Of a DNA stretch of 64,000 nucleotides, positions 31,201 through 64,000 are shown piece by piece; positions within the stretch are counted from its first letter, which is position 1, and every line of letters starts with the position of its first letter. The position numbers were made by a program, and so were the translations under genes. The notes under the pieces were generated by a model, which saw nothing but the letters and a program-made list of their open reading frames with translations, was not told the origin of the DNA and did not search any database. Origin of the DNA: Blasia pusilla (lineage: Eukaryota); assembly GCA_050084515.1 (NCBI GenBank), contig CM114271.1:12028001-12092000 (forward strand), written 5' to 3'.

Positions 31201-31437
31201 AGGTTCCATGTGGGGACTATGTCTATTTGCAGCAGATTGCCCCGACAACGCGTTGGATGTGACGGCAGCCGCACTATTTTACGAAAAGTGCGTGAGGTGT
31301 TAACTCGGAGTTCTCATGTTGGAGGGTCGTGATGGAGTTGTTTGGAAGGACCATGTGCGTAATTGTGCGCCATGTCATCTTCCAAATGTGGATGGTACTG
31401 TTGACCCAAGCTTAGCCATGATACGTGCTAGCTTGAG

Positions 31438-31579
31438 GTGCATGTTGTGTGGGTCTGTTGGTAACGCAACCCGTATGTTGGTGTGTGATCGGTGTTCTAG
31501 GGGTTGGCACATGATGTGTTTGACTCCACGTTTGGATCTTGTTCCTACTGGAAGGTGGGTTTGTCCTCGATGTACTTAG
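31438..31579 (+). CDS. PHD finger at the integrase C-terminus
   Basis: CMLC...MLVCDRCSRGWHMMCLTP...VPTGRWVCPRC* = C4HC3 with the conserved Trp. Confidence 0.92.
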
Positions 31580-31754
31580 GAGAGGTAGATGACTTGATCT
31601 TTGCATGATATGGATAACAGATGTGCGACTAACGATGGGGCAACCTAGCACCCGGCCTTCTGATTTGGGCACCCAAGAAGGTGTATAGCATGTAGTAGAT
31701 GTATAGGGCTACCTGGGAGTTAGAGGGACCTAACCGCCAGTTAGGGGGGCGAGT

Positions 31755-32331
31755 TGTGGTACACTTGCGTTTGTGGACACTCTCGTCTATGTTATGTATG
31801 TATGTGCGTATGGTATGTCAGCGATGTATGTTGTATAACGATGTAGATTCGCACGACAGCTGTCATGACCATACGGATTATGTCGTAGAGTATGGTGTGC
31901 TGGTAGAGGCCATTCCTTATGTAGGACCGTAGTGGCTTGGTAGAGATGCGGTTCCATACATAGGGTTGGGGTTACTCACTTGGGGTGACTTTCCCAGAGG
32001 GGCCCGCTCTTAGGTTGGAGGATATAAGGTGGCTTGCCCTCAAAGAATAGTCAGTTCTTTGAGTTGAGCCATTGCGTTGGGAGTTAGCCTTGGTAGTGAG
32101 TAGAGCTCTTGGCTATGGTGTTTCTCGCAAGCTTCGACCTAGATTCTCCCATCGTGGAGTGGGTTTGGCTCGATTGTATGTGATTGTAAACGTGTTTTAT
32201 GACAGTAGGTCTTTCACGGATTTCAGTTGTGGTACACTTGCGTTTGTGGATACTCTCGTCTATGTTATGTATGTATGTGCGTATGGTATGTCAACGATGT
32301 ATGTTGTATGACGATGTGGATTCGCACGACA
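31755..32331 (+). repeat. Right-end repeat block B1 (31755-31858) - gc - A2 (31861-32225) - gt - B2 (32228-32331); PPT AGGGGGGCGAG(T) at 31743-31754
   Basis: B1 and B2 are 104-bp near-identical direct repeats, each TG...CA. B is absent from the left end. Confidence 0.93.
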
Positions 32332-41559: not shown

Positions 41560-43830
41560 ACTATTCATCAACAGTAGTCAATGCTCTCATGAAAATGATG
41601 TCACAACCAGTATCATAAAACACTCACTTGCTTCACATTGTCTCGTTCTCAATGAATCAAAATCTTCCCTATCTTGATGCCTTTACAACATGCTCACAAG
41701 GCATTTTCCATACTCTCTCCACTAGCCCCATTGGAACTAATATACTCAACCGACAACTTTTCCCTAGCAATTTAATTCAAGAGCTCCACCGTAATCTTTA
41801 AGTGATCCTTCAGAGCACCACACACCGCTCGAGTCATTGCAGTAGCATGTTGAGGGGAGAAAGCCCTTAAAGTCACTGACATATTGTGAGCCATGGATGA
41901 TCCCCCAAAAGACACAAGGAGATGGGGGGTGCATAGCTGAAGTAAAGCCTCAAAGCCTTTTTCTTCAATGAACACTCTCCTTGTGTTTGCATTTTGCAGT
42001 CTTGTCTCCAGAAGCCGCACTATATCTTTATGCACTCTGGCAAAAAAGCCTCCACATTTCCATTTGACCCATCCCTAGCAGGTTCAACAAGTTGTTGTGA
42101 AGTTCATGCTTATGCCTGTGTTGGAGATGCATCATCTGTGACAGATGGAGCCACAAGTCGTTCCTCTGAATCACTATCCATGGGCACTAGTGAATCAGAA
42201 CTCGGTGCTTCTCTTAAAGTTGCTAAAGTTGGGACCTCAACTGCACCCCCAATTGTTGCAATGGTAGGCCCTCGTAGTGTGGGGGCATGACGCATTAGCT
42301 CATCCACTCTAGAGGCCAGAGATCAAGAGGTGTTATTTGCCAAAGGTCTTAAGTACATCTTTGAGGTGAAAATTCTCACAAAATAACCAAGAGCATTCCT
42401 ATCTTTGACAGCTTGCAGACCCAAGTTGTTAAAAGATAGAGCATCCAGACTGTTAGGTAGACAACTAACCGCTTCTAAAGAAGGAAGTACACCACTTATA
42501 ATTGCATCAAAAAATGCTACAGGAAGGCCAATTGGATCAAGAGACGCAAAATAGGTGGGATCTTTGTGGATAAGATCACTCATTACTCATGCCGCCAATG
42601 AGAAAACTCCTCCTTGGCATGCCTAAAGATGCCTTGACTCCTCCCAAGCATGCGGGAAGAGCACTTTCTTCAGAGCCATGTAACCGTGCAGTACTTCCTG
42701 GTGCATATGTGCCCAAAGCAATTGCTCTTAGCAAAGCCTTGAGTAGAAACCTTTGATGGTAAGGAATCAATGTCTCTACCTAGACAACAGCTTATGCAGA
42801 GTTGCCATCCTCAATCATGGGGGCCTTACCCTTCGAATCTAGCTGTAACTCTTCCTTTTGCTTGGTGGCTCCTTCCTCTAATTAACTGACCTCCAACTTT
42901 AATCTTGCAATGGTATCATCCAGACCATCCAAATCTCTAAACAATGTGTTTGTTGGGTTATTGTTATCCATAAATGCCTCCTAGATATGGACATCAGAGC
43001 TGATTAAATGAGTATGTTGGGAATTCATGTCCTTCAACAAGGGCAAAAGGGTAGGAATAAGCCCCCCTTCCCTAAGCGCTGCACAACCAGATTATGAGGA
43101 GACTAAGACTCTGACAAGCGGGAGAATAGCCTCCACAAATGAGACAGAGCAGCCACATGTTCCACCAATGACAGATCCTATAGCCTTTTTCATAAGACTA
43201 AGTAGAATACCCATGTTTCCACCAACATTGATAACCGTGAGGACATTAGACTACCGAGAACTATTTTGAGACTGGGCTACAAGTGCAAGAACTTGCAATA
43301 TTCTAATATCTTTAGGTATTGACTCCTCTCAGTGCAGAAGTGTGACCAAGTCATTCACAAACACTGTCTCATTGATGAAAAAAGTTGTAAGCTCTTCATG
43401 ATGTGGATTTGACAGCAGTAAGACTGTAAATGCAAGGATTCGTATATACATATGTATGCCTCCTACTTGTGAGAGAGGCAAAGGCTCTTGAAAACATAAT
43501 TCGCATCAAAAAAGAGAAATGCAAACTTTGAGGCACCATGTACTGGTCAATTAGTTGCTTCAAAAGCTAGAGATCATCCTCACATCTTCACTGAAGATCT
43601 GGAATGTGAATGGCTACAAGACTTAAACCTTTGATACAGATTTCAATTCTTCTTCTCCCTATACATTACAATCTGCATAAAATTCAAAGTGAAGAGTTGA
43701 TCCCAGTCTACCTACATCCATCTCGCATCCATTCTCAATCGCACAAGCTAAGAGTCCAAAACCATCTTCTTTGCCTCCCCATCCTTGTGACAATGAGAAG
43801 AGCCGAGTATTCAAGGTTGCGTCTCCATGT
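41560..43830 (-). pseudogene. UPL1: Fragment of a UPL1/UPL2-type (HUWE1-like) HECT E3 ubiquitin ligase, N-terminal DUF908/DUF913 region
   Basis: Recognisable peptides SQGWGGKEDGFGL, YHQRFLLKALLRAIALGTYAPG, GSEESALPACL, MSDLIHKDPT, NNLGLQAVKDRNAL, FIEEKGFEALLQL. Many stops, frameshifts and deletions; no HECT domain in the window. Confidence 0.85.
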
Positions 43831-45391
43831 AGCCTCCTTTTCCCAAGGGGCGAAAAAAAGTAGACATCATAAAACCACTACAAACATTTTTCCATCACTC
43901 TCCATATGAGCCTAAGTTTCTTCATATTGCTTGTCTCACTCTACATTAAGCTATGCCCAGAGGTATTTTTAACTACTCTAACTATGGTCTCAATAGACTA
44001 CGGTGCCCTTGAAGGTTTAACTTCTCGGAATATGTGGTTGACATTATGGATTGATATCTATTCTTGCAAAAGGCATAAAAGACTCCTCAATAAGGGGCAA
44101 AAGAAAGGCAAAAGGAAATGCCTTTAAATGATTGTTGACTCTTCTTGCACAAGGCATCAATACTCATCCATAAGGGGGTTTCCACAACAGAGTAAATCGC
44201 TTGTCACTCATGGTAGCCTTAGACTTTCATTACATCATTTGATGATATGGGCTCTTGAATGGGTGCACAAAGTATGCCATGGAGTGCTATGCGTTTGACA
44301 ACTTGGTTTCACCATTCTCTCTGCCACTGAGAAATGTGAACACATAAGACGACAATTGAACCAAAAGATTGATAGCTGTCTGGAGTAAAGAGGAACTGAT
44401 AAAAAAGAAAACGTGATCAAACGAGACGAAAATTGAAGCAAAAGATATTTAGCTATTAGGAGTAAAGAGGAACTGACGCACCCATGTCCCTTCATTCAAA
44501 TCCTAAATCTGAGAATCCGAGAAGCTGCACCCCTCCCAACCCATCGGAATCGGATGGGTTGCACCCCTTGCAACCAAGCTCACCATAACAAAAGAAGGAT
44601 TTTGAGAAGTGATTCCATTATGCCCTGCACCCCATGAGAATCCAACAGGTTGGGAATCCCACATGGCAATCTGACAGGTAGTAGGAATCCAACACGTCTT
44701 AGAGAAGAGAAGAAGCCTACAACTGGTTTGATGATAATATGGGAACGAGCCAAAAGTGAAGAAGCCCGCCATAATGCCTCAAAAGTTGGACTAACAGGGA
44801 AAGAGTCCGATCACTCAAGCAGCCAACTTGTCGGAATCCGACAGGTTTCCTGAAAGTGGTTAAAATATTGTGAGAAGTTGCAACATGTCGAAATCTGACG
44901 GGTTGCAAAATAAACATTCTTAGTAGATAGACCAACACAATCCACAAGACCAAAAAAGATATTCAGTGAACTTTTACAAACAACATCATGGATCGAAAAA
45001 TTATTGTCCTTTATTACATCCGAGGGAAGCTCGGAAATGTACATTTGATCTAGTCTATGATTTCTTCAACCTCGTCATCTACAAATCTACTCCTAACTCT
45101 CATAGGTTCCTATACAAAAGGAATATCCTAGGATGCAAGTGGCTCCTCTGGCCGATTGTAGACGGGGATCGAAAATGTTGGGGAATTCGAGAGCCTTGCC
45201 CCCCTCCCCTAAGGTACACCATAACAGTCCCATGTAACCTGATTTGAGTCCCACCGCCTTCCTCGACACTAAATGTTGTACGCTCTGCAAGGTGACACCC
45301 ATCCTTTATCAATATGTGCTCCGTCCTTGGAAACCAATAAATCCCTATTCCAAAACGCTTCATTCAAGCTGGGTCCTTTAGTTCTTTGAAC

Positions 45392-48300
45392 TCACTCGTC
45401 ATCGTCCGAAAACTCTTTCAGAATTACTGTCGGCCTTGCCCTCCCGATTTTTGGAATAGTGGGAAGTGACGATGGTGTCACTACCAATGGTAGGTCTGGA
45501 ACCGGAGCTCTCGGCTTTGGAGGAGAGTTGTATGCTCCAACTAGCATGTCGTAATCTGCCTTTGCCTCTTTGTAAAGGTGATAAAGTTAATGCCTTCCCT
45601 CAAGGTAGAGAATGTTCCTGCCACTTTGCCAGGCGCCTCTAATACTCGCCCCTGACAGGCCCACTAAGTCGAACACCAAGTCACCCGGCCTTGAACAGAC
45701 CTCGATGAGCGTTTGCATCAAGGCAGGGGACTTTTCCCTTCCTCCAAGTAAGGGAGTCCCGTCTTGCATGTAAATTCCCCCCGGGGGGGGGGGGGTTATT
45801 GTATAAACTATCTAAGTTGTACCCATTGGAGCATGGATCGACTGGATCCACAATCTAGAACACCTGGAAGTTGTGCTCGGGCCTTACAAAACAGTAAACA
45901 AAGGAGTGGTCCATCTGTAAAGAAGCAGGTTGGAAACAATGTCAGCAAAAAGAAAGAGCTACTTGACCGTTGGTCTACAATATGGTGACACAATGTGCAA
46001 CACGTCTATAGTGCATTCTAGTCCTTGTTGATTACCAACCCATAAGAACTTGGCCTAAAGTCCTAATACTAGAGCAACCTGTCGGAGTCCGAGGGGTTAT
46101 TTTACAAGTGTAATTGTTTTTTTTGCCATGAGCAACCCGTCGAAAGCCGACAGGTTGCTGGCTTAGAGCAACCCATGGTTGGCTAAGAGCAACCCGTCGC
46201 TTTCCGACGGGTTGCATCACTCCAAAAACACAAGGAAAAGCACAAGTACTTGCAACCCGTCGGATTCCGACGGGTTGCACTCGCTCAATGGAGACTTGTG
46301 GTAAATTTGCAACCCGTCATTTTCAGATGGATTGCAACACCGCAGCCACAAGCTCTAGGGATTCGACGGATTGCATGCACAAATGCAACCCGTCAGAGCC
46401 CGACATATTGAATTTGGATTAAGAGCCCTTACTCGTACTTGACTCGTCGCCGATCGGAGTGGATACTCGTTCTTGATGACCCATGATTGCGCCGTCCTCC
46501 ACTTCAGCGACCTCTTCACGCATTGAAGGTTGAAGAGCTCGTCCTCGCTCCCTCTAGTCAAGACCAAGAAACAACTCCTATCACTCAGATAAGCATCCGC
46601 AAAAGAAAACAAGAGCGCGATCTGGTCATAGGTAAGAGGGACATTCCAGTCTGGGACAGTGTCTGACGGATTTTTGTCCCATAAGAAAAACCTAGAGGGA
46701 AAATCTGTGATGAGGAGATCCACCACCACCTCCTTGACCACCCCATGGACCGTCCAAGGAGCGTGCCCGTTTCATTGAAGTTTTCGTCTCACCATGGTCA
46801 ATTTATAGATGGCAGGTGTCGACTCCTGGGAATTGAAACTTTGCAGATCATCCACAAGATTCATGAAGTGAATGAGGACATTTGTCCTGGTCGTTGTTTC
46901 TCTATGTCTTCCCAAGGATGATGGAGTGTATTCCACATCCTTATCTGCTCCTTGGGACGAACCAGGCGCCTCCCGCTTTCGCTTCTCTCAAGTCTGCGGT
47001 CGGCTTGTGGGGGTCTCTGTTACCTCAGACTCGACTAGAGTTTTCTTGGCGGAGGACCTGGTCCGGCCCTCTGGCCCCGCTTGCGTGGAGATTCTGCCTC
47101 TTGCCTTGAGGTCTCATCCTCTTTTCAAAAAGAGTCGGCCTCGGAATTCTTCGATCCCCTCGCCTTTCCTTTCAAACCCATTGTAGATTTGTCCTTGACG
47201 GTGACTACCTTGGACACCAACTCCGCTGTCTCGAGGGCTTGCTCCTCCGCATCTCCTTGGAAAAAATCTTCAGGCTGCACGAAATTCGGAATGTCGTCCC
47301 TACTTGCGACCATTGCATCATACACCAGGCATAGATTTTTGTTGGTTATGTCCTCAAGGTTGTTGAAGTCCAACCAAATTGGGCAATTGTCAACCTCCGA
47401 GTCGGACATGCCCTGTGCCATCTCCATGTCGTACATTGAAAATGCCTCTCCATCAAGCGGAGAAGCCCACAATTTGCAGATTGCCGGTATTTTTTGCCAG
47501 GTACCTGCATTCTTACAATTGATGAGGTACCTGTACACCATCCATTGGGCAGCTCTTTGTCGAGATGAATCGGCCGCCAGCACCTCAAGATCCCGCTTCT
47601 TCTTTGCAAAATCCCTTTTTTTGGCGTCAATTTCTTTATCCAGGTCTGCCTGAGGGAGGATGTGATTCTTGAACATCATCCTAAAGCCTGGGTTTTTGTG
47701 GGCTTGTCTCGGATGTCATCAAGCCATAGTTCAAAATCTTCTGCACTCTCAAGGTTTGCTTCATCCGGAACTGGCTCTATCTTCTTCAGCTCCACTTGAA
47801 GACCCACGAGCATGGACTTCCCAAGAAACCGCTACGCGTCCCATAATGACCATTCACGTAGCCAATGGGAGATCACTCGATCAGAAACTCCTGGAGGATG
47901 GTGTGCCACCCTCTTTTGGGCCTCTGTGCCCTCGAGACTGATTTTCATCAGTTGGATTCTCCTAAACTTAGAAATTCCAGACATTGCAAATCTGTGAACA
48001 CGGTTCAGAGACACTTTCTCGTCGATCCCACCATGCAGATCTTCGTCTCTCTTCCGCTGGAGCTTGATTATCGCCTTGATCTCCTTGTAGAATTATGGGC
48101 CAAGTTTCGGGTTCAGAATGGCAACGTAGCGCTACATCTTGCTTGCAGTGTACTTCATAGCTGCAGATACTGCAGCCTTGATAAACTTTGCACGTTCAGA
48201 CTAAGACACGTTCTCCCTTCGCTCCTGTTCCAATGAAGCGCTCTTCTTGGCGGCCTGGATTTTCGACCAACAAAGTATTGTGACGTCTGCATCTTGGGAA

Positions 48301-50474
48301 ATGAAGATATTTGCCCAAGTCTTCTATTTAATTTGAGCGCCAGCATCTCATTTTCCATAGTGTCGCCCAAGAACCCCTTGTAGTCTATTGGGTGCGTAGT
48401 AATCACCTTTTTCACCCTGTCGCAATCCTAGATCCAGTGGTGGGTGACGTTCCCCTCGGATACAATCCTGCACATCCAAACACACGTTAAGAATTATTGC
48501 AAGCTATAGGGTTCCTGCAACCCGGCGGACTCCGACTGTTCGCAACACCTCGTGGTCGAAATGGTAGCACAGAGAAAAATATTGCAATCCATCGGGGTCC
48601 AACGGGTCGCAACACCTTTTTTTCTGGTACACTTATTGCAACACTCACGCAAATTTTTAGCGATAATTGCAACCCATTGGAGTCCGATGGATTGCACCCG
48701 GATTTGTGATTGTCTGGTTATAACCCGTCGAACTCTGAAGGGTTGTAACTCTGAGACTGGTTTCCGGAAAAAAACTGCACATATCAACCCGTCGGAGTCG
48801 GACAGGTTGCGCAATTTTTAGTAAAGCTGGATTTGGACGCCTAAAAGCAGACTCTCCTACTCCGACCACCTACACGTGGGGGCAAATGCAACCCGTCGGA
48901 GTCCGACCAGTTGCTTTTGGCCAAAAATATCCCAAAAATAGCGGACAGTCCAGCAACTCGTCGGACTCCGACGAGTTGCTTTAAGGCGTCCGATGATTTG
49001 TTACCACTAGTTTAACAACTCGTCTGAGTCTGACGGTTTTTAGAACATATACATCATGCACTCATTTTTACACCCGTCAATGGTGGATTGCTTTCGGTAT
49101 CCCGGCTTTCTGTGGTGTGCTTGCCCACCGTCGCTTGAAGCTTTCCAATTATGCAACCCGTCTGACACCGACGAGATGAAGCAATCAAAATTAAGGAAGA
49201 GCGTATTCATGGCATGCATTGCCATTTCCACCGTTGCCATGTGATGAGGAAATGGATGGAGGAGAACTGCCTTAACGCAAAAATGCGCCTCCAATGAATT
49301 TGGGCGCTCCTCTACAAACTGGGTCCACGCCATGTACTTGTGGTTTCCATCCGAGATGAAGATGTAAAGGTTCCGCATCTAGCTAAATTGCGTTCCCTCA
49401 ATCGCCCTTCTGAATTCCTGATCTCTCATCCTCCAGAATGTATCGAGCGCTTCCAAGTCCTCTTCCGTCACCAGCCCTTGGGTTCCATGTTCATCGTAAG
49501 GCTGAACATAGAACAGAGGGAAGCTGTCGACGTAGGATGCTGTTGCTTCCGACTCAATTTCGCGGACATACTCCATTTTCCAAAATCAGCAAAGTGGAAT
49601 TGTCAGGGCATTTTGGCCCTCCATCAGTGCCATCTGCTTAACAACCTGCCACAATGGGGACCAAGTCAATAAACTACATTGTTTTGCCAATGAATTGGAT
49701 CATGGGCCTTCACATAACTCAAACATTTCTTACCCGCTCAAAGATTGGGTTGGTGTCTTGGCCCGCCAACTGCTCTGGGACAGCAACTCGCAAGTCCATA
49801 GGAAACTCATCGATTCGATAAAGGTCAATTTCTTCGGCCGGGCTCAAAGACGAGTAAGATTGTTTTCCTGCTTCTTCAGAGATGTCCACCATCTCCACGC
49901 TTGCCGTCCTCATGACCTCATCGTCCGTCGCTTGAACTTCGACCATTTCCTCAACCAATTTTATATTCATGGTGTCCCCAGACTTCATCGGGGACATTTC
50001 CTGCATCTCAACACTCTCTGTTGGACGGGCAGGGCTTTCTCCAATGGCAATCGTTTTTTCCCTTCGAGCTTTTGCCAATTCTGCTCTCCTCACGGACGCG
50101 TCCAAACGCTTTTTCTTATGTTTCTCGTCGGTGACTCTTTTCTTCAAGGCCTGCGATGCTTCAACTTTGGCATTTTGTTTTTCGAGTGCCTCTAGAACAC
50201 GTTTTCCAATAAGCTCTTGCCTGTGCATATCTACTTCTCTTTCCCGCTCCTCTATCTCTTGCTGCCTTATCTCATTGGCCGAACGAGGCCCTAGAGATGG
50301 TGACGTAGGAGTCCTCAGGACTTGGGAGTGATGCTCCCTACCTTGCTTGCTTGCATTTTTTTCCTTGTCATGGTTCCCGTCAATGCTTCCTCCTCGACAG
50401 TCTAGACTCTTTTTGTGCACAAAAATTCCCTCGAATGGTCTCGCGATGAATCGCCGTGACCCTAGACCATGCAC
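45392..50474 (-). pseudogene. Multi-exon gene: coiled-coil N-terminus, ParB/Srx-like domain, beta-class N4/N6 DNA methyltransferase-like domain
   Basis: ParB-like IFISDGNHKYMAW (49337-49351; cf. DGxHRxxA). MTase motif IV region VDLLITDFP (~46700). C-terminal REKSPALMQTLIEVCSRPGDLVFDLVGLSGASIRGAWQSGRNILYLE (45600-45745) follows the N6_N4_Mtase pattern KP..L...I...S.PGD.V.D.F.GSG....A...GR.....E. GT-AG intron at 49733-49645; stops consistent with C-to-T changes. Confidence 0.75.
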
Positions 50475-51668
50475 GAAAATTCCCTCTAATGGTCTCGCGA
50501 TGAATTTTTGTGACCCTAGACCGCCGTGACCGTTTCGTGATGAACCGCCCTCAGCCTCCTTACTCCCCTTGGTAGCTGGTTAGATGCTACGCGGAAGAGC
50601 ACATGAAATCGCGAAACAAAAAACGGAAATGAGCAAAACCTCGGCTATTTATACTTTTTGAGCCGTTGAGCTGACCGTTGGGTTGCACCGTCGTACCGAC
50701 GGCGACGTGTCGATTGTTATGGAACTTTGGACGTGGGAACTCGGCCAACCCGACGGTCTTTGACGGGTTGCACGCTTCCCGTGTTTTGGAGATGCATGGC
50801 GAGTTGCCCACGAAACTTGTCCAAGACCCATGGGTTGCACGCATCCGTCCTCCTTGGGTAACAAGCCAAACTACCCTGGAACCCCATCGCAACTGACAGG
50901 TTGCATGCCTCCCCCGTCTTGGGGTAACAACGCGAGGTACCCGCGGAACCCGTAGGAGACCGCGCGGTTGTACGCTTCCCTTGTCTTGGGATAACAAGAC
51001 GAGGTACCCGTGCAACCCATCGTAGGCTGACGGGTTGCACGCTTCCTTCATGTTGGCGTTCCAAGGCGAGCTACGCGCGCAACCCGTCGGAGGTCAACGG
51101 GTTGCACGCTTCCCTCATCTTGGGGTTACAAGGAGAGGTACCCGGGCAACCCATCGGATACTGACAGGTTGCACGTTTTCTCTCCCTCGGGTAACAATGC
51201 GACAAAGCATAGTTCCGAGGCAACTTGTTGCCCTCCGACGGGTTACAAGGTCTACCCAGAGTTGGACACTTCCCAACATATGGCAAAACTGCACTCACGG
51301 TTTGCACGGTTAATTGAGTAACGGAAATCGACGCGAGATGCAAAAGGGAAAGCAAGGTTAGGTACCTTTGGATCCTGTAATAGTCCCTAACGGGTTGCCG
51401 TAGCAAATCCATGCTATGTCTCGTGTTTGATGCTAGAAATCTTGACTCAAATCACATTGGTCAGACAAGAAGGGGGTACCATCCCAATGGACTCCGACGG
51501 GTTGCAACTCACACTGGGACACTAATAGAAAATGGAGCTCCGAGCTTCGCAACCCACGTGTCTGATTCCCAAATTCTGCAACCCATTGAACTTCGACAGG
51601 TTCCAACAAGATTGAATCCATTCCGTCAGAGAATCTCACCTACCAAACAACATCTTGTCAATCAAATT

Positions 51669-54600
51669 ATGTCAGGAGAATCTGAGTCACTATTCACAAT
51701 AAATTAAACATTCTCATTCTCATTCTCATTCTTAATCTGTGTCCCCTCCCGGTGGAATCTTCTGGGAATGGATAATTATGTGAAGCTCACTTGTGGCAGT
51801 CATCTAGCGGCCCTTCCTCAATCATAAATAATTTGACCGCAAGCTCAGAGTCTTTCATACCAGTGGATGAAAATGATCTCTCAGTTCGATTTCTTCTCCA
51901 AATTGGAACCATCTTTGTGTCCAACGATGTAAGAGTAGACGGTACGGAGGACATAATAGGTGAGACAGTCCAGCCAATGATTGCAGACCGTAAAGTATGG
52001 AATCTCCTACCTCTAGCAAATGGTCAATACAGAGTTTACGGCTTGCCTCTGAATTCCTTTGTTTCCCAAGTAGACGGTCGAGAATTTCCTAGTGCACTGA
52101 GCTCCTCGTTTCCAACTCTGAGCTCAGTAGATCCGGCATCGACTCCAACTTCACACGTTTGTAACAATGTTGTACTTCCTGAAGACATTTCGAATGTCGT
52201 CAACCTCAGTGGATCTGCCAGACACCAATCGGCCCCTCTATCTGCCTACTTGTTCCTCTTGTGAGTATCAGGCAATAGTTTGCTATTGTCTCTGCCCTTT
52301 AAAATGTTCAAGCACATTCTTGTCGACGAGCTTCCGCCCACGTACCATGGTAATTGCATTTTTGAGTTGCCTCCACTTGCTGCTCCTGCTCAAAAGAAAT
52401 ATGGAGGACGCTTGAAGGATATGGACAAAAAGTCTGATTATCATCAATAGTGCAGGCTTCAACGGACTAGTGCTTCAATTCCAAATGGTCCTTGGATTGT
52501 TTCCCGCCGCCAATGCGTTGAAACCTCGGAGTGTAAAAGTCCAGCATGCTCGTATCTAGAGCGTAACGGGTGAGTCAATACATCGCGATTCCCCCCCAAT
52601 AATGCAAAAACTCCATATGAGGTCGATGCGACCATACCGCCGCGAGGCCATCGATGTCCTTATGGTCAGGCATCCCCTTTCTGCGTTGGAGCGTGTCCTA
52701 CATACATATTTTTCATTTTCCACGACTTCAATTCTACGTCAAAGTACACAAGGCTGGCAGTTCATGTTGGCTCCCACAGTCATCCTGTGATCGGTGCAAT
52801 TCAAAGACACATCAAGGAGGATGTGGCAAAGAAAGTGGCCGAGGTCTATAGAAACTCTCTCGGATCAAAGCCTAGAGTGATCAAGTTAACAACAACATCA
52901 CAAATTTGTGAACAAGTGCTTGGAATCTCTGGGTAGGGCGAGATCACAGCAGTTGAGGAGAATCAACTATGGGAAAATCTCGCATTTCTCGCTGATCCTG
53001 AATACTTATGGAATTTGATACGTCAAATACGGGTACTGGATGGAAAGACGACCGAAATGGATGCCATTTTCAGAATCAAGGCCAACTCCAAATTTCCATT
53101 CATTCAGAGATGGCTGTTCATGGGCCAGGGAGGTGAAGGATCCAAGGTTGATGTCTTTAAAATATCAACGACAGGACCGTCTAGTGGCCTCGATCTTATA
53201 GATCGAATGAGGGAAGGGGAAGATCTTTACGGTAGTTGGGTAAGCTTTGATTTTTGCTACAGAGTGCTGAATGGATGGTTGACCATGGGTGCTCACGTTT
53301 ATGACCATGTGGAGAAGGGACTCAAAACTATATTTGTCTGTGAAGTAAAAGCAGAAGACGTTGGCAGTTTGAAGATGTGTCGGTTACTCTTATTGAAGGT
53401 GGTGAAGGAAAACAAAAGGCCAGCTCTGGAAATTTATGGGTTCATGGCGGATAATGCACAACATGGGTGGATTGCTATCATGGAATATTCTGGGGTGGAG
53501 AGGTTTAACCGAAGAGGGAAAGGTTGGATGCTTTCCATTGGCAACAGTGTGTGACCCGGTACACCAAATGTTGCATCAAGGAGAATAAGAGGACAGAGCA
53601 TGTCACTCTACTCCAATGCTGCAAGGACAGCAAAACCTTGAAACAGGCCATGGAATGCCAAGAAGAACTTCATGGGTGGTGGAGGAAGCATGCGATTGAG
53701 GGGAAGTACAAAGAGTTGTGCTCTTGGCTGAGTTGGTGGACTGTACGAATGAGACAATGGGGAAACTTCATGCGGTAGGTGAGTTCACTATTTCGTCTTA
53801 TCAAGCTCACGATGAGAATTTTTTGAAAAGTTGCAACTCAAGTTGAGAAGCGTGGGTACTATAGGGATTTCAAACCGAAGAAACCAAGCAACTTGTCGGA
53901 TGCGACAGGTTGCCCGAGTGTGCAACCCGTCAGAAACGGACGGGTTTCCTGAGTGTGCAACGAGTCGAAAACCGATGGGTTGCATCAGGAATGTTGGTGC
54001 AACCCGTATACAAGTATGCAAGTCGCATGTATACAAGACTTGCAAGTAGTTTGACCCAGATGGGTTCCGGATGACTTGCACTTGGGATCTTCCAGCCCGG
54101 AGTGGCCAAAGGTTCTTGCAACCCGTCGGAATTTGACGAGTTGTAGTAGGTGGTTCCTGGGTGTTGCAACACGTTGGGACCCGACGGGTCGCAGAGTCAT
54201 TCATTGGATGCCTTTGTCTTGCAACCCGTTTAGTTCCGACAGGCGGCTTTTTTCTCTGACTTTGGAGCTGTTTTGGTTCCCTTCTCACATTGCCGTCGTT
54301 GCACGGATTGAACATTCATGAAAATGCCCTCTACCCCAACACAAATGGAGCAAAAAATATTCATTCCTCCTAGAGGTCATCACAAGCATGCCAAAGAATT
54401 TCACTTGTGGAGGCATGCCAACAAGACCAATTAAGAGCAATGCTACAGTCTGCAACATCCCATATCTTCCTCACAAAAGGCATAACAAAAGGAAGGGGGC
54501 CTTCGATCTACGAGCTCTATGTCAGGGTGGCTGTGAGATAGGGTGATGAGAAACTCTATGTGGAAGCCTTCAATTGGTGTGTAGCAGGAACTCCCCTCGA

Positions 54601-55807
54601 GCAAGACATACACATTGGTGGGGATATTTGTGGGCGCGTTTCAAGACGTCCCAAACAGATGGTGGTAGAGCAATCCGAGCGAGACTTGTGGAGGCCAGAT
54701 AAGTATCTTGACTTCAGGCAGGTGAAAAGGTAGCATCAAGGAATAAACCCGGTGATTGATTTGAATGAGGAAATCACGCCGCCCAGGTATTCGGAGACCC
54801 CGGATTCCTCCCAAATCCATGATGGAGTAACTTCTCCAAAATCAGTGAATGTTTTATTTCAAAAGCCCTCCGTTGCTGGAAGTTTGCAACATCCACTCGT
54901 TGGGGTGGTTCAACAGTATGGGATTCCGGTCATTGAGATGGATTGCAACCTCAAACGATGGCATATATCTTGGAGCAACCCTGGACATGGACCCACTTGT
55001 AGGGCAGGATCTGATGGCATTAGGAGAGCATGCGGCACTTTTCTAAATAACAACTGTACAAGAACTAGACGACCACTGCCTGGATTTTGGGGACTCAAAA
55101 CCTTTGAGCCTTTCACGAGGACGGGGGATCAATTGAAGCACTTCTTCTGCCCAAATGAATCTTGCGCTTTTCGGAAGTCTTATACGGCTGCCATTGGAGC
55201 TCCAAGGAATACCCCCACGATTTGGCCCATTGCCGCAAGTACGAATTGCACTCAAGACGAAGTGGACAATCTTACAAGTGCCAGTTTCAGACTCGTAGAC
55301 AGAGGAAGTTTGGAACATGTTTGCATTACAGAGACCTTCGCATTTCGTATGCAACCCAAGATTGATGTCAACATGTACCCGGAGAAGGTGGATGATCTCA
55401 ATCCACTATTTCTGTTTGAGTCTAGAAATGGGGTGAAGAGAAACAGAATGTGTAGGCCAATGGTGGAGAGAGCAGAGCGAATTGCATCAGATCGGGAGGC
55501 AAAAATAGAGACCATCGCCACAAAGGATGTCCAGAGTGGCAATGGAATATGAAGGATGTATTGGGTCAAGAACAAAACTGTAAATTCAAGTGTCACAAGG
55601 GTGTATGTGGTGCACATCTGTTGCTTTCCCACATGTTCATGTGATGACTTTGTCCAAAGAGAGACAAGTGGGAAAAGGTATTTCCCTTGTAAGCACATGT
55701 ACTATGTGTTACTTGTAGTTTTAAGAGAGTTGGAGGTAGGAATAGGAATCCACCAACCAATTATGTCCCTCAAAGAAGTGCGAAGTATTTTAAACAAACC
55801 ACTTTGA
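51669..55807 (+). pseudogene. MULE/Mutator-type DDE transposase with N-terminal Cys/His (GCM/WRKY-like) domain and C-terminal SWIM zinc finger; intron ~53779-54305
   Basis: D1 WVSFD (53249), D2 FMADNA (53450), DAFHWQQ, E motif PNTSGAESVHSSW (intact in copies 1 and 3, mutated here), SWIM CSC-x14-CKH (55630-55697). The start position is approximate. Confidence 0.85.
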
Positions 55808-57271
55808 GGATGCAAAATAAGGTTTAAGATTATACTTTATTTTTCCAGAACCTTCACTTTGAGCTTAAACTCTATTAAGCCCAAGGCAAATGATAGATTT
55901 TTTCCAGACCTTGGATGAAAAAAGTGATTGGTTCCACACTTATGATTCCACTGATTTTTCAGTTTTCTAAATTTTGTGCAATTTGCAACTCGTTGGACTC
56001 GGATGGGTTGCCAAAATAAGGAAGAGGAAAAAAAATTGTAGGAGTGCTTAAGAACTGAGCAGAAAAGTGCAAAAAAATTCACACAAAAAGTATCGCGACC
56101 CTCATAACCAAACAACACCAAATCAGCCCCAAGCGGAACATCAGAACTCAAGTGAACTCACGCTGCAATGTTTGCGCTTTGGAGAGGCGTTTGGAAATGT
56201 CACTTGGAAAAGTCCAAGAGACGAAACGCGGAACAAAGTTGTGTGTTTCATACGTTAGTGGTCGCGACCAGGAAACCTAGACCAAACGCGAGCCAAGACT
56301 TTAGATGAGTTGAGTCTTGGGAGGTTGGTTGCCAAAGAGATGAGAACCAGTTTGGAACACGAGTAGCGTTTGGGAGAATCTGACTATTTTTAGGACCATA
56401 ACGTTGAGCCCCAAGATGCATTTGAGACAAATAAGGGCGTTTTGGAAATATTATCTTGAGATGCTTCCAACGCACCAAAGATCTTAGCAAACGCATAAGT
56501 ACAGACTGAGATATTGGCCGAAAATGACTGTGAGAGCAATCGAGTTGAGGTCCAATTGGAGAGGCCCGGGTGTCTTTCCCGAAATGTAGGGGGCCCCTGG
56601 AGATTTCCATAAGTACCAGTAAGGGAGGAGTCTCTCTTAGATGTCTTGGAACACGAATCCCCATTTTGAGTGCCAAACGGCATTTGAGAGGCACGGGATG
56701 GAACGGGAGTTTGGCGTTGGAACTCGAAACCCAAACCTCATCCAAGGGAGTGGACTTTGTACGCCACACTTGGATTCCAACCCGATATTCACTTTGTGTG
56801 AATCTTGGTGAGAAACTCATTGGATGTCCATCGGAAAATTGGAACCGCCACGCGCAAAATGCCGTTTCAGGTTCCTAAACCGACCAAAAAGTATGTCCCA
56901 AGTCTTTCGAGACTTGCCCGTGATGTAAACCGCGAAACTAGGAAGGTTGAGCTTAATGAGATTCCGAGACGAGAACTCGGAAAGTTATCCCGCTGATTGA
57001 TCCAAGAACCGACTAACCAGAGTGCGTGTTTGGATGCAGATCAGCGTTGAGAGGTTGACCTACTGAACGCACGCTTCCGCAACCAACAAGATTAACGTTC
57101 AAGGAGAGTAGGCGCACGACAAAAAGTTTCCTCTCTTCAACCCAACGGAAAATCTCTTCAAATCACATGAAACTCTCTTAAAAAAAAATATCTTTTTTGG
57201 TTGAAGGTAGTTTCCTCTCTCCTCTCTCCTCTCTCCTCTCTTCCTCTCTTCCTCTCCTCTTGCCGCACCTC

Positions 57272-58587
57272 CTTCGGCTTGGATCATGCATAAAGAACTT
57301 CTATACACAATGAATAAAAGTTTTGAAAACTCAAGACACAAGGGAATGATCCCTCTCTCGTCTACTTTACTCTTTAAATTGTCTCTTTGTAATTCGTGAT
57401 TGACATTTCTACGTCCTTCTAAATTTCTAATTGTTAAACTCACGGTTTAGATGTTCCAATCCTTCCTTTCCCATAAGTCGGTTGATGTCTCTTCCGCTTC
57501 CTACTGAACCGCGATGCTCTTTTATTTCTAACTTCTGAAACCGCTGTGACGATTCACTATCTACAGTCTTCGTTGGATGCGAAGCACTCCTATCTTATCT
57601 TTGCTAAGCACTCCTATCATATCTTTGCTAAGCACTCCTATCCTATCTTTGCAAAGCACTCATATCCTATCTTCGCGAAGCCTATACTACTATTGCTACC
57701 ACCACAAAGAAGTTCTCCTCGCGACCTTTGTAGTGCCCTTATTTTTTGAATTTTGATAAAGAAGTCAATTTTTGTAGAGAATTGTAGTGAAGTCTTCATT
57801 GAGTAAAGACTAAAGACTTCAGACTGGAAGTAAAGATGTATGCTTTACAGAAATTATGTGGAAACATGGAATAATAGAGCTCTGATGAAAGAACAAAAGA
57901 TAATAAGAAATTGAGGACTCTCGTGGAGGAATGAGCCTTGTGTAAGAAAGGAGTTGGAAAGAAGTAAGAGTAAGAGGCGTGGGTACTTCGCAGGGAAGAC
58001 TGTAAAAGACTTCTTCTTTGCAACAGAAGATCCAAGGGAGTCTTCCAACGAAGATTGTGAACAAAGAACGAAGATCAAAGATCAAAGAGCAAAAAGCGAA
58101 GACTAAGAAATCCAAGGAGAAGGAGAAAGAAGAAGAGGAAATCGAAGAGTCTTCAAAAAGCGGAAAGGTGTATGAAGAATAGTAATAGAAAGAGAAATAA
58201 TATTTTGAGGAAAGCGGATTGAAAGAAAGTTGCAAGGAGGACTCTTCGCGGCGGGAAAAGGATAAGAGTCTTCGCGAAGATAGAACTGCGAAGACTGTAA
58301 ATAATGAATCGCTGCGGCGGTTTCGGAAGCCATAAATGAATTGGTGCAACCGTTCAGAAGGAAGCAGAAGGGAATCGAACCGACTTAAGGGAAGTGAAGG
58401 GTTAGAGAATCTGAACTGAGGTGTTGATAGTTAGAAATATAGATGAGAATAGGAAGAGCTACGAATTGTAAGAAACTATTTAAATATTAGAGCATAAGAG
58501 CAAGGGATCATTCCCTTGTGTCTGGAGTTTCCATGTTCTTTTGGTGGATTGTGTGAAGAGGTATTTGGGGGATGATCAAAGCCGAAG
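57272..58587. mobile_element. Non-coding 1.3-kb element with ~300-bp imperfect terminal inverted repeats
   Basis: CTTCGGCTTGGATCAT...GACACAAGGGAATGATCCCT (left) vs AGGGATCATTCCCTTGTGTC...ATGATCAAAGCCGAAG (right). Inner arm ends at ~57570 and ~58285. No TSD seen. Confidence 0.7.
57579..57681. repeat. 24-bp tandem repeat x~4
   Basis: AAGCACTCCTATCNTATCTTTGCN units. Confidence 0.9.
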
Positions 58588-59953
58588 AGTCTTGTATCCT
58601 CAAAAGCTTGCAATACGTTCTAGTTCTTTCCACTCTTTGATGCAGTAGAAGTGTCTTCTCTCATTCATTCTGATGTGCGGAGTTGAATGCAAATCTTATT
58701 GGGTTGCGGTAGGGATGAGAGTTAAGTCCTTTAGAATTCCCGAGGATAATCAGGAAGAGTGTAGGAAAGCTGTTAGACAGTGAGTAACCTCCCGTGACAA
58801 ATTCAGTTCTGAAAGCAGGGTGAGTCGCAACCTTCTTGAGGTCTTTGTTGGAACTTTGTTATCCAAGATTCGCAAGAGTATTTATCTGCACTTGAGAAGA
58901 GTCTTTTCCAAGAGGGGAGAAAATTATTTTGTTCTTTTGTACTAGTGAAGACTTAGTCATTGAAATTAGTGAAGTGCCAAGTGAAGAAGGAATTATTCTT
59001 GATATTTCTTATAAAATATCTCTTTACTCAAGAAACAATCGTCTCTTGGGAACGAACTTAATACTTTGCGATTAAAATAGTACCTTTTTCCTTGAGTTGT
59101 AAATTACAACCTTCGTTTCTCCTTTCCTGTCCTTTCTCCTTTCCTCCACTTACAAAATTTCTCAGTGCTCCAAGATAATTCGTTGATCTTCCAATCTCCT
59201 CATCTTCTCAATGGAGTTTCACTAACTAGCCTTATCAAGTACTCTTCCAACTATTTCTCTTCCTCTATTCATATTTACAATCTTCTACAAAATCTTCAAT
59301 CTTCCTTAATAAAGACTTTTACCAATTTTTGTACAAAAAACATCAAAACTATAAAATGTTCAAAAGAGTGGGTATCGCATACGTCATCGATGAAACAGTC
59401 AACAAGAGATTGAAGGCTCCAAAGTGTGGAACCTCTTACCCTACTCCAATGGAAAATTAGAGTTTATGGTCTACCTCTGAGGCGGAGGTTGGTATTATGG
59501 CACGAGAGAGTAAGAGAGGAGAGGAAGAGAGGAGAGTCTCTCTTTAAAAAAAAAAGGGCAAAATCCGCCTCCTCTCTTCCAAACTTTTTGACATTTATAT
59601 ATATATTTTTGCTTTTAAATGCGAAAAATCTTTAAAAGAGAGTAGCAAGTGGACCAGATTTGGGGCATAAACTAACCTTGTTTTTCCAGGCTTGGAAAAA
59701 CAAGAAGACAAAAGAAGACCACTTTAAACATGCTTCCATCATTCTCCATGTGAGCCAATTTTTTTTCACATTGCTAGTCTAAGCCGACTATAGAGTAAGC
59801 CACCAAGAGGGGGTATTATTGTTGGAGGACCATCTAGGGATAATTGTATTAATACAAACAATTTTAGAACAATGATAGGTGTTTATAAATATTAACTATG
59901 AAGTCAATACACTATAATGCCCTTGAGGGTTTTACTTAGGGTTAAAACCAATA

Positions 59954-60537
59954 TGTGGGAGTGACTAAGCACAAAGAACAAAATTGCATAAATGTTCACA
60001 AAAAAAACTTCCTTTTTTCAATCCAACGGGAAACTCACGGCATACCACAAGAAGCTCTCTTCGAAAAAATGTATCTCTTTGGGTTGAAGGTAGTTTCCTC
60101 TCTTCTCTCTTCCTCTCTCCCTCTCTCCTCTCTCCTCTCTTCCTCTCCTCCTACCGTGCCTCCATGAAAGTCATCGCTACGCCCAATGGTCAGAGTTTAC
60201 TTTGAGTGGATTTCAAGTGTTTTTCATGCCTTGACTACATCAAGGCATGAAAAATCACATCCGATCAATACATATCCATCAGATGGGATTTTCCACAACA
60301 AAACACTTGAAATCCACTCAAAGTAAACTCTGACCACTGGGCGTAGTCGATGACTTTCATGGAGGCGGGGTAAGAGGAAGGGAAGAGAGGAGAGAGGAAA
60401 CTACCTTCAACCCAAAGAGATACATTTTTTTGAAGAGAGCTTCGTATGGTTTGAAGTGAGTTTCTGTTGGATTGAAGGGAGGAAGTCTTTTTGTGAACAT
60501 TTATGCAATTTTGTTCTCTATGCTCAGTCACTCCACA
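59954..60537. repeat. Long inverted repeat (arms 59954-60224 and 60300-60537) made of two facing MULE right ends
   Basis: Arms are near reverse complements; perfect 15-bp-stem hairpin TTTTTCATGCCTTGA-ctaca-TCAAGGCATGAAAAA at 60220-60254. Confidence 0.88.
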
Positions 60538-63500: not shown

Positions 63501-64000
63501 ACCCTGTAGCAAATATCAAAGCTAACCCAGCTCCCAAATAGATCTTTTCCCTCCCTCCTTTTGTCAATAAGATCTAGACGGCCCTATAGTAGACATTTTG
63601 AAGACATAAGCTCTAGATCCCTTGCCTCCTTGGCCCATGAACTGCCATCTCAGAATGAATGGAAACCGTGAGTTGGCCTTGATCCTAGCAATGGCATCCA
63701 TCTTCGCGGTTTTTCCATCAAGTATTGGTATTTGATGCAATTAGTTCCTGAAGCTTTCAGGATCAGCCAAGAATGCAAGATTTTTCCACAATTGCTTCTC
63801 CTCAAATGCTGTGATCTCCCCTTGGCCAAGGATACCCAACAGTTGTTCACAAATTGGCGATGAAGTTGTCAATTTGATCATTCCGGGATTTGATCCAAGA
63901 GAATTTGTGTACACCTCGGCCACTTTTTTTTCCACATCCTCCTTGATGTGTCTTTGAATTGCACCCGTGATAGGATGAGTGTGAGACCCAACACGAATTT
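60360..64000 (-). mobile_element. Mutator-like element copy 3 (transposase >64000-60757 with SWIM; runs off the window)
   Basis: LNGWLTMGAHVYDHVEKGLKTIF, ERSDAFHWQ, AESVHSS, YVVHICCFPICSSDDF...FPCKY; palindrome array in the intron 62290-62960. Confidence 0.88.

Follow-up and report, generated by a model that had tools for sequence, protein, structure and literature searches.

The window, that is the whole 64-kb stretch of DNA analysed here, contains one DNA transposon in three copies, all diverged and dead, spanning 33.6–38.6 kb (copy 1), about 44.5–56.3 kb (copy 2) and 60.5–64 kb (copy 3). A transposase gene is common to all three (inverted repeats I1–I12 in the window) and is broken in every one of them. 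Among the three, the body of a second, accessory gene is present in copy 2 only, where, as the preliminary description of this DNA had recognised, a plus-strand transposase-like gene lies head-to-head with a multi-exon gene on the minus strand. Nothing in the window is functional today. Terminal inverted repeats were found neither at positions 43840 and 57271, which are thus left unmarked as the element boundaries proposed earlier, nor delimiting a unit with both genes, and no target-site duplication was found for copy 2.

Table 1 Positions of the transposon copies, their genes and their palindrome arrays in the window
Feature	Positions	Strand	Details
Copy 1	33607–38640	−	Broken transposase on the minus strand
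Copy 1, intron array	34436–35069
Copy 1, upstream array	37452–38102
Copy 1, exon-1 remnants of accessory gene	38448–38630	+
Palindromes downstream of accessory gene	44536–44906		Three; leftmost sequence assignable to copy 2
Accessory gene, whole	45395–50579	−	Multi-exon
Accessory gene, motif-I exon	45395–45811	−	REKSP...PGDLVFDLVGLSG...GRNILYLE; then TAA 45587–45589, then in-frame tail
Array, intron between motif-IV and motif-I exons	46074–46395		Sole perfect copy 46252–46278
Accessory gene, motif-IV exon	46433–46771	−	DLLITDFP 46697–46720, then 'LSDRSCFLVL' strand; donor GTAAGG at end
Accessory gene, middle exon ORF	47128–47715	−	Homologous to P0001 residues 199–321 (tblastn E 7e-7)
Accessory gene, conserved middle part	47835–48323	−	Homologous to N-terminal parts of Riccia P0001 and P0002
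Array, accessory-gene intron	48517–49179		7 copies at ≤5 mismatches
Accessory gene, two ORFs in one frame	49043–49585	−	Split by TAG 49379–49381; DGNHKYMAW 49325–49351
Accessory gene, exon-1 ORF	49734–50579	−	Charged, with repeats; donor GG/GTAAGA at end
Array, promoter region between the divergent genes of copy 2	50745–51505		67-bp tandem repeats
Copy 2 transposase remnant	51776–55807	+	ORFs 51776–52264, 52574–53554, 53509–53778, 54734–55807
Transposase, Cys/His-rich N-terminal part	52574–52936	+
Transposase, DDE-like stretch		+	WVSFDFCY 53237–53260; GFMADNAQ 53438–53461
Array, large intron of copy 2 transposase	53903–54192
Transposase, SWIM-like CxCx(n)CxH	55634–55696	+
Copy 3	60488–64000	−	Broken minus-strand transposase, truncated where the window ends; intron array 62307–62900

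All six transposase ORFs match copy 1 and/or copy 3 (64–84% amino-acid identity; within the window, E ≤ 1e-3), and the in-frame TAG of copy 2 (52934–52936) stands where copies 1 and 3 both have Q. The gene had been described as a MULE transposase with DDE and SWIM regions. Of this, SWIM was the one Pfam match, at sub-threshold strength (E 0.0026, 17.7 bits against a cut-off of 19.6), and the MULE assignment found no counterpart, as neither a MULE nor a Transposase_mut domain was detected by Pfam. No database relatives of the transposase appeared at the sensitivity of the searches used. The transposon family is probably Mutator-like.

Accessory gene and its relatives

The strings previously quoted from the accessory gene, DGNHKYMAW, DLLITDFP and DLVFDLVGLSG (the last at 45650–45682), were all located, and motif IV precedes motif I in the order of the gene. 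A point absent from that earlier account is that the gene in the window is a pseudogene: at least three nonsense codons (TAG 48201–48203, TAG 48132–48134 and TAA 48093–48095) fall in conserved sequence, within the stretch homologous to Riccia, and there are further stops in the DGNHKYMAW frame and in the motif-I exon (Table 1). The relatives of the gene are two hypothetical proteins of the liverwort Riccia (P0001 and P0002) and one metagenome fragment; for the motif-IV exon, HMMER returned three relatives among 1.84 billion representatives. The conserved middle part matched P0001 and P0002 with E values of 3e-12 and 1e-7 (tblastn), and P0001 spans three exons of the window, which indicates that these exons belong to one gene. 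Both the three exons and an intron position (Q-[VF]-[RK]/GT) are conserved between the window and Riccia. P0001 and P0002 come from two Riccia species, each with one annotated relative, and are 32–39% identical, a level more in keeping with diverged element lineages than with a single conserved host gene. The middle exon ORF matched no Pfam family, and about 450 residues without an assigned fold precede the methylase-like half of the protein.

Copy 1 had been said to keep the same divergent arrangement, a claim that the comparison within the window did not bear out, since none of the seven accessory-gene ORFs has another match there at E ≤ 1e-3. What copy 1 retains are remnants of exon 1 (38448–38499 and 38604–38630, matching 50362–50312 and 49757–49731 of copy 2), the sole part of the gene represented in that copy. 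These lie at the same distance and in the same orientation to the transposase as in copy 2, with no homology past the exon-1 donor. That the accessory gene belongs to the mobile unit is thus established in part; the remainder we infer, because a single copy in the window has the gene body and neither terminal inverted repeats nor a target-site duplication delimit it.

Methylase-like half of the accessory protein

For the C-terminal half of the protein, a beta-class (motif IV then motif I) N6_N4 amino-methyltransferase-like identity is supported, in agreement with the preliminary description, through a series of matches each of which falls under its curated threshold. The motif-I exon matched Pfam PF01555 below threshold (E 0.0038, 17.6 bits against a cut-off of 26.7) and, in the PDB, M.RsrI (E 0.02) and DpnA (E about 2), which together account for four of the seven sequences listed at E ≤ 10. 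By tblastn, the same exon matched 299 phage records (best E 4e-4); among 40 rows spread evenly down this ranking, 33 are annotated methylases and the other seven are unannotated, hypothetical or (one) a ligase, and the motif-I region is 30–46% identical to phage methylases across 40–63 residues. Our own methylase profile scored 45.5 bits on this exon, a circular figure given that its members were chosen by that very match. For motif IV, the exon and its three relatives align in one register with positions 25–112 of a profile of seven phage N6_N4 methylases, and hhalign of the family against these seven across the DPPY region gave a score of 29.9 (E 4.5e-4), reached by none of 150 column shuffles (mean 12.4, maximum 20.2), with the reversed alignment scoring 12.7. 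As the seven methylases were selected by their motif-I match, the motif-IV test is independent of the way in which the members of the profile were picked, and its outcome suggests that the exon corresponds to the N-terminal half of the beta-class N6_N4 methylase fold. PF01555 had no match on the motif-IV exon or on P0001–P0003, and no methylase was among the Foldseek matches obtained from low-confidence models (pLDDT 34.6 and 48.7).

In place of the canonical (D/N/S)PP(Y/F/W), the catalytic motif reads D-[FLI]-P-x, with the aromatic residue of DPPY absent from all four family members, so that the earlier caution that the methylase may be dead holds at the level of the family. The canonical SAM-loop motif (motif I) is also lost in copy 2. 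Given these degenerate motifs and the absence of the aromatic residue throughout, the accessory protein was likely an inactive pseudo-enzyme. Motif I is seen in one decayed copy only, and its degeneracy could therefore be decay rather than a trait of the family.

Palindrome arrays

A 27-bp CpG-rich palindrome, GCAACCCGTCGGAnTCCGACGGGTTGC, is specific to the element. With ≤3 mismatches allowed it occurs 19 times (0.00 expected from 100 shuffles), and its half-site occurs 64 times at ≤1 mismatch (0.32 expected). All 43 copies at ≤5 mismatches lie inside copy 1 (14), copy 2 (24) or copy 3 (5), with none elsewhere in the 64 kb, and the element's own site arrays reported earlier are thus real. The palindromes form tandem arrays, placed in introns of both genes and in the promoter region from which the two genes diverge. 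Their presence in two introns of the accessory gene and downstream of it supports the membership of this gene in the element. Hairpin folding energy in the array between the motif-IV and motif-I exons is −17 kcal/mol (z −8.35). Palindrome cores from different arrays, chosen as they were for resembling the consensus, are 74% alike; for the flanking 20 nt the figure is 31%, with 29% for random pairs, which indicates that the arrays did not arise by copying one longer repeat. Decay of the motif is dominated by CpG transitions, 49 of which fall on the 8 CpG positions, with 38 on the 18 remaining positions, the trace that past 5mC silencing would leave.

Interpretation of the locus

On balance, and with modest confidence, we read copy 2 as an old, dead copy of a two-gene, probably Mutator-like DNA transposon of a plant-like, probably bryophyte genome, with a divergent accessory gene and its own palindrome as a putative site. 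A beta-class N6/N4 DNA methyltransferase of bacterial or phage type would be the ancestor of the C-terminal half of the accessory protein, and the protein may have acted as a pseudo-methyltransferase that retained DNA binding rather than as an enzyme. The palindrome would be the cognate site for a protein of the element, whether the transposase or the accessory protein, and its binding may have singled out 'self' copies as targets of activation, anti-silencing or transposition, in the manner of VANC motifs in VANDAL elements.

It is rather unlikely that the palindromes are instead transposase binding sites, or hairpin-prone repeats feeding small-RNA silencing, with the methylase-like gene unrelated or roleless (for example, a captured decaying fragment). 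This alternative is compatible with the anatomy and departs from the preferred reading only in the protein that reads the sites. Arrays are also present in copies 1 and 3, where no methylase-like gene was seen; the Cys/His-rich N-terminal part of the transposase could bind DNA, and a MULE transposase alone is described in a preprint as activating cognate copies sequence-specifically (10.64898/2026.08.24.746577). The dominance of CpG transitions in palindrome decay would suit past 5mC silencing. A captured fragment, however, is at odds with the three exons and the intron position shared with Riccia, which point to a long-lived coding gene. Also rather unlikely is an accessory gene outside the transposon, whether a host neighbour or a gene of another element, whose introns were invaded by palindrome-bearing fragments. 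This history would require at least three separate array insertions (44.5–44.9, 46.07–46.4 and 48.5–49.2 kb) alike in the 27-bp core only, and although it could draw on the restriction of the gene body to copy 2, the end of copy 1 homology at the exon-1 donor, the lack of terminal inverted repeats around both genes and the single annotated relative per Riccia species, it would leave unexplained why the copy 1 remnants match copy 2 in their placement relative to the transposase, why decay has gone as far in the gene as in the transposase copies and why the Riccia relatives, at 32–39% identity, do not look like host-gene orthologues in one genus.

The full model of the preliminary description, in which a ParB-CTPase-like clamp joined to an active amino-methyltransferase loads on the palindromes, spreads and deposits 4mC or 6mA on the element, is highly improbable. 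Its ParB-like domain was drawn from the nine residues DGNHKYMAW, which are similar to the DGxHR box seen in ParB/Srx domains and lie N-terminal to the methylase-like half, an order also found in phage fusions such as a Wolbachia WO protein (ParB_N + N6_N4_Mtase), and the palindromes are parS-like in form. Against this, no ParB_N or other ParB-clan Pfam family matched any exon or X-read-through at E ≤ 10, the three N-terminal ORFs were absent from the 1369 sequences listed at E ≤ 100 for a profile of 10 phage ParB_N domains, and hhalign scores to ParB of 8.7–10.0 were reached by 39, 47, 55 and 55 of 60 shuffles in four variants. A ParB domain is found in one of the seven phage methylases retrieved and is absent from the best motif-I matches (phiO18P, Gordonia, PY54 and rV5), and the catalytic aromatic residue missing across the family argues against an active methylase.

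Comparison with known systems

In En/Spm (CACTA) elements, a second element-encoded protein, TNPA, binds a short motif repeated, direct and inverted, in non-coding DNA; these motifs are subterminal and not intronic or in the promoter, the superfamily is another one, and TNPA is without a methylase-like domain. The order of motif IV before motif I is shared with methylases of phages and bacteria that are ParB_N + N6_N4_Mtase fusions, one example being the methylase of Wolbachia phage WO beside the terminase. From these the gene described here differs in having no detectable ParB_N, in its degenerate catalytic and SAM motifs and in being spliced, eukaryotic and transposon-linked. Bacterial-type N6_N4 methylases are also found in eukaryote genomes as Marchantia MpDN4MT1a/b, likewise from a liverwort, and rotifer N4CMT (10.1101/2021.02.12.428880, PMC8885841); these stand apart as host genes with intact TSPPY and proven 4mC activity, and are not presented as transposon-borne in the description consulted (10.1101/2021.02.12.428880). 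DIRS1 retrotransposons likewise encode an inactive methylase-fold domain with substituted catalytic and substrate-binding residues, for which a binding role has been proposed (Iyer et al. 2016, PMC4738411). Unlike the accessory protein, that domain, from a different methylase group (PCIF1-related, group 2), is part of a retrotransposon polyprotein, and no site arrays figure in its description (PMC4738411).

The layout of the locus resembles the Arabidopsis VANDAL/VANC system, and a similar function may be envisaged by analogy. In VANDAL21 (Hi; VANA, VANB, VANC), accessory genes adjoin the transposase (PMC5735166, PMC10398659), and the motif bound by VANC is tandemly repeated within introns of VANC21 and VANB21 as well as upstream of VANA21 (PMC5735166). 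The VANDAL motif is oriented and 9 bp long; the one described here is a CpG-rich palindrome of 27 bp. All copies in the window are dead, and the accessory protein, with its degenerate N6_N4 methylase-like half, matched no other Pfam family. In both systems, a short element-specific motif has been amplified in introns and upstream of the transposase, in arrays that vary between copies (PMC5735166).

The transposon and its transposase

On sequence grounds, the element fits best among two-gene DNA transposons; it has putative cognate motif arrays and an accessory gene that carries a degenerate N6/N4 methylase-like domain. The window is eukaryotic in composition and spliced ORF structure, and self-comparison of the window joined three decayed copies of the element (c1, c2 and c3) through inverted repeats I1–I12 at 74–84% identity. 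All six ORFs of the c2 transposase re-find c1 and/or c3 (64–84% amino-acid identity), and all three transposase copies are broken: c2 has a TAG where c1 and c3 encode Q, and the reading frames of these two are interrupted by stops or frame breaks at other sites.

Transposon copies, second gene and neighbouring features (coordinates within the window)
Feature	Position	Strand	Detail
c1 transposase repeat	~33.6-37.3 kb	minus	self-comparison
c2 transposase repeat	51.8-56.3 kb	plus	self-comparison
c3 transposase repeat	60.5-64.0 kb	minus	self-comparison; cut by window end
TAG in c2 transposase	52934-52936		
CxCx(15)CxH in c2 transposase	55634-55696		
65-bp segment shared by c1 and c2	56194-56258 (c2); 33607-33671 (c1)		86% identity; two small hairpins
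Second gene, ORF string	50579 down to 45395	minus	head-to-head with c2 transposase
Tandem duplication in exon-1 ORF	50416-50522		54 bp; repeated peptide ...FIARP(L/F)EGIFVH...
TAG in second gene	49379-49381		
Exons spanned by P0001	48143-47841; 47559-47209; 46771-46430	minus	
Nonsense codons in Riccia-aligned stretch	48201-48203; 48132-48134; 48093-48095		
DLLITDFP	46697-46720	minus	motif-IV exon
DLVFDLVGLSG	45650-45682	minus	motif-I exon
TAA in second gene	45587-45589		
Identical direct repeats (D1)	3506-3805; 8197-8496		at least 300 nt, 100% identical, 4691 bp apart
Repeat family D8, D9, D12, D13	14.0-16.2 kb; 41.0-41.3 kb		80-96% identity
8-kb block	24001-32000		GC 0.49-0.52; GC skew +0.21 to +0.28
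Direct repeats flanking the block	22868-23012; 31861-32005		145 nt, 97% alike
DUF913 ORFs (two)	41772-42586	minus	Pfam E 1.9e-22 and 2.9e-4
Sequence like the 604-bp arms	57119-57272		80-85% alike
1.3-kb unit	57272-58587		300-bp inverted repeats, 72% identity
Self-complementary structure	59944-60547		604 bp; arms 75% identity

The preliminary description had named the transposase a MULE with DDE and SWIM domains, a firmer label than the domain searches bear out. A SWIM domain (PF04434) scored in c2 just under the Pfam cut-off (E 0.0026, 17.7 bits versus 19.6) and a CxCx(15)CxH pattern is present, while no MULE or Transposase_mut match was returned for the ten ORFs tried (six from c2, three from c1, one from c3). 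By eye, the D...D...CxxH spacing resembles that of MULEs. As Pfam sees a sub-cut-off SWIM only, ‘Mutator-like’ is a plausible label that draws on the SWIM pattern and this spacing, and is not proven. The DDE exon found no protein homologue (‘longer’ setting), nothing meaningful among PDB sequences, no plasmid match by tblastn, and unnamed clusters only in the ESM Atlas.

The ends of the element were judged by the MULE criterion of long terminal inverted repeats (TIRs) and a 9–11 bp target-site duplication. No inverted match >15 bp links the flanks at 43.0–45.4 and 55.8–60.7 kb, and nothing convincing of either kind was found at the copy ends or at the boundaries set in the preliminary description. 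The 65-bp segment shared by c1 and c2 lies in direct orientation despite the two copies being mutually inverted; its DNA fold has −12.9 kcal/mol (z −3.7) and it has no Rfam match, the scan of the whole window having returned zero families.

Palindrome arrays

The proposal that the element carries its own palindromic site arrays was borne out. The palindrome GCAACCCGTCGGAnTCCGACGGGTTGC occurs far beyond chance, with 43 copies at up to five mismatches, all of them within the element (14 in c1, 24 in c2 and 5 in c3) and none in the other ~39 kb of the window. The copies form tandem arrays with a period of 35–67 bp, which occupy the divergent intergenic region of c1 and c2, the large transposase intron of all three copies, and, in c2, two introns of the second gene together with its 3′ flank. 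Between arrays, likeness is limited to the core, the flanks being 31% identical versus 29% for random pairs. The palindromes have decayed mainly through CpG transitions (49 at eight CpG positions versus 38 at 18 others), which is the trace left by germline CG methylation. Two metagenome contigs (60–62% GC) also contain the palindrome and were set aside as unrelated, because each has a single isolated palindrome and no related gene.

Structure and relatives of the second gene

The second gene is a string of minus-strand ORFs in c2, in which every sequence string quoted in the preliminary description is present. Its motif-IV exon (46433–46771), run with HMMER against the full set of 1.84 billion representative proteins, returned three relatives: two hypothetical liverwort proteins, P0001 from Riccia sorocarpa (488 aa) and P0002 from Riccia fluitans (305 aa), and a metagenome fragment (P0003, 104 aa). 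P0001 covers three window exons, which therefore form one gene, and in the window and the Riccia relatives alike an exon closes with Q-[VF]-[RK] before a GT. Both Riccia gene models enter the intron at this point and then end, and they represent neither the motif-I exon (45395–45811) nor the upstream ‘ParB’ exon, the N-terminal part carrying DGNHKYMAW (49325–49351). The two Riccia proteins are a mere 32–39% identical to each other, and so look, at the sequence level, like diverged element lineages and not host-gene orthologues. As a query for protein homologues P0001 recovered itself only, and against PDB sequences nothing meaningful; a search with the 196-residue exon (‘longer’ setting) found no homologue.

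As it stands in the window, the gene is a pseudogene: the Riccia-aligned stretch is interrupted by three nonsense codons, and the gene has a TAG and a TAA elsewhere, the former of which could fall in a 93-nt intron. The exon-1 ORF also contains a short tandem duplication.

A degenerate methylase-like domain

At the level of sequence profiles the second gene is methylase-like. DLLITDFP lies upstream of DLVFDLVGLSG, the beta permutation, and the two regions align to profile positions 26–87 and 177–228 of 261. The motif-I exon matched PF01555 under the gathering score (E 0.0038, 17.6 bits versus 26.7) and M.RsrI at E 0.02, and tblastn returned 299 phage records (best E 4e-4), with methylase annotation in 33 of 40 rows sampled evenly down the ranking. 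PF01555 matched neither the motif-IV exon nor P0001–P0003. Evidence for this half comes from a profile comparison with seven phage methylases fetched from the motif-I matches, a choice that owed nothing to the motif-IV exon; all seven pass PF01555 and one has ParB_N. With hhalign, the four-sequence motif-IV family aligned to them with a score of 29.9 (E 4.5e-4), pairing family columns 15–74 with methylase columns 27–87, which hold the DPPY strand and the next strand. None of 150 column shuffles reached this score (mean 12.4, sd 2.2, maximum 20.2), and the reversed alignment scored 12.7. The 45.5 bits that our own profile gave on the motif-I exon are circular and were not counted. In other comparisons, the whole of alignment A1 versus a single rV5 methylase reached E 0.19 (hhalign), BLASTP of the motif-IV exon with the same protein produced a misplaced match only (E 0.041), and the family profile found nothing meaningful among PDB sequences.

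A structure search carries no meaning, because the model of the motif-IV exon is too poor. AlphaFold2 gave a mean pLDDT of 34.6 for P0001 alone, and the AlphaFold2-route model of the exon with a four-row alignment reached 48.7; with this model Foldseek returned no PDB match at E ≤ 0.001, its top matches being Lrp, HMA and IS608-type alpha/beta folds (TM ≤ 0.43), with no methylase among the matches listed. A complex prediction for the two methylase half-exons scored 0.02 against a mark of 0.34 and is evidence neither way.

The catalytic residues are divergent. The tetrapeptide reads DFPS, DLPT, DLPK and DIPN in the four family members, none of which has the aromatic residue of (D/N/S)-P-P-(Y/F/W). 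The SAM-loop motif I reads D-L-V-G-L-S-G versus D-P-F-x-G-S-G; as the Riccia gene models end before this exon, the motif is known from one copy, which is decayed. The protein is more likely a pseudo-enzyme that binds without catalysis, as proposed for the methylase domain of DIRS1 (Iyer et al. 2016, PMC4738411).

The proposed ParB-like domain

The ParB-like domain of the preliminary description was not supported. No ParB-clan Pfam family matched any exon, or the read-through with X, at E ≤ 10, and a ten-sequence phage ParB_N profile detected none of the gene’s N-terminal ORFs at E ≤ 100 (1369 sequences). In DGNHK, K replaces the R of the DGxHR box. Although hhalign pairs ISDGNHKYMAW with the phage profile at the GxxR box, its scores of 8.7–10.0 were equalled or exceeded by 39–55 of 60 shuffles in four variants, one of which is the third variant with a mis-framed exon-1 tail as a junk extension. 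With no profile signal and hhalign scores at shuffle level, the claim comes down to nine residues. BLASTP of the ‘ParB’ read-through with the WO ParB-methylase gave E 13, the ‘ParB’ ORF found nothing meaningful among PDB sequences, its unaltered 69-residue part had no usable match in the ESM Atlas, and the phage methylases nearest to the motif-I exon are without ParB.

Cargo or neighbour

The second gene is probably cargo of the element, as the preliminary description had held, and the window alone is no proof of this. Arrays peculiar to the element occur both within the gene and past its end, c1 retains two remnants of the gene’s exon 1 in the same divergent position, and the gene has decayed as far as the transposases have. 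Against cargo, the gene body occurs once in the window, the c1 homology ends exactly at the exon-1 donor, and no TIRs or target-site duplication enclosing both genes were found at the proposed boundaries or elsewhere.

Neighbouring features of the window

Between c1 and c2, two ORFs match DUF913, a domain of HUWE1/UPL-type HECT ubiquitin ligases, and are probably a host gene. Another repeat family (D8, D9, D12 and D13) is shared by the 14–16 kb region and the DNA immediately past the point where c1 is truncated. An 8-kb block with strong positive GC skew, unlike its surroundings and flanked by direct repeats, may be another inserted element, and the identical D1 repeats resemble the LTR pair of a young retroelement. 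At its 3′ end c3 adjoins a self-complementary structure whose arms resemble sequence ~1 kb past the end of the c2–c3 homology; the structure is possibly a family terminus or a MITE that combines two termini, and a search on the opposite side of c2 gave no inverted partner. Directly after the right boundary set in the preliminary description, a 1.3-kb unit looks like a separate non-autonomous element.

Possible function and comparison with known systems

Taken together, the earlier observation is partly confirmed and its interpretation partly supported, the methylase-like domain and the arrays being supported and ParB not. The c2 copy is dead, and the function of the accessory gene and array pair is inferred. 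One scenario, which we consider distinctly improbable, is that a lineage of bryophyte DNA transposons took up an N6/N4 DNA methyltransferase of phage or bacterial type, which would have become a catalytically silent, sequence-specific DNA binder. Such a protein would recognise the CpG-rich palindromes that the element carries in promoters and introns, and would shield or reactivate them against host CG methylation.

The one family in which a transposon’s own protein is so far known in detail to counter silencing in a sequence-specific way is VANDAL/VANC of Arabidopsis. If true, the scenario would describe an anti-silencing device built from a methylase fold, with an origin independent of VANC. 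Another case, unrelated to the first, would show the strategy to be general and provide a tractable protein–site pair to test. The candidate comes from an early-diverging plant lineage; its protein is a putative pseudo-methyltransferase and its site a long palindrome. The few bacterial-type N6/N4 methylases of eukaryotes would also gain a transposon-borne branch. A dead copy with three distant relatives is a starting point for a census across the genome and not a result.

The searched literature lists no description of a Mutator-like or other DNA transposon with an N6_N4 methylase-like gene; plant ParB- or methylase-fused proteins may be listed in the supplement to Iyer et al. 2016 (PMC4738411). 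The layout of the arrays matches that of VANDAL21, whose VANC-binding motifs are tandemly repeated upstream of VANA21 and within introns of VANC21 and VANB21 (PMC5735166). The Blasia element likewise has an element-specific short motif as tandem repeats in introns and upstream regions. Its anatomy is VANDAL-like, and its accessory gene carries a degenerate N6/N4 methylase-like domain.
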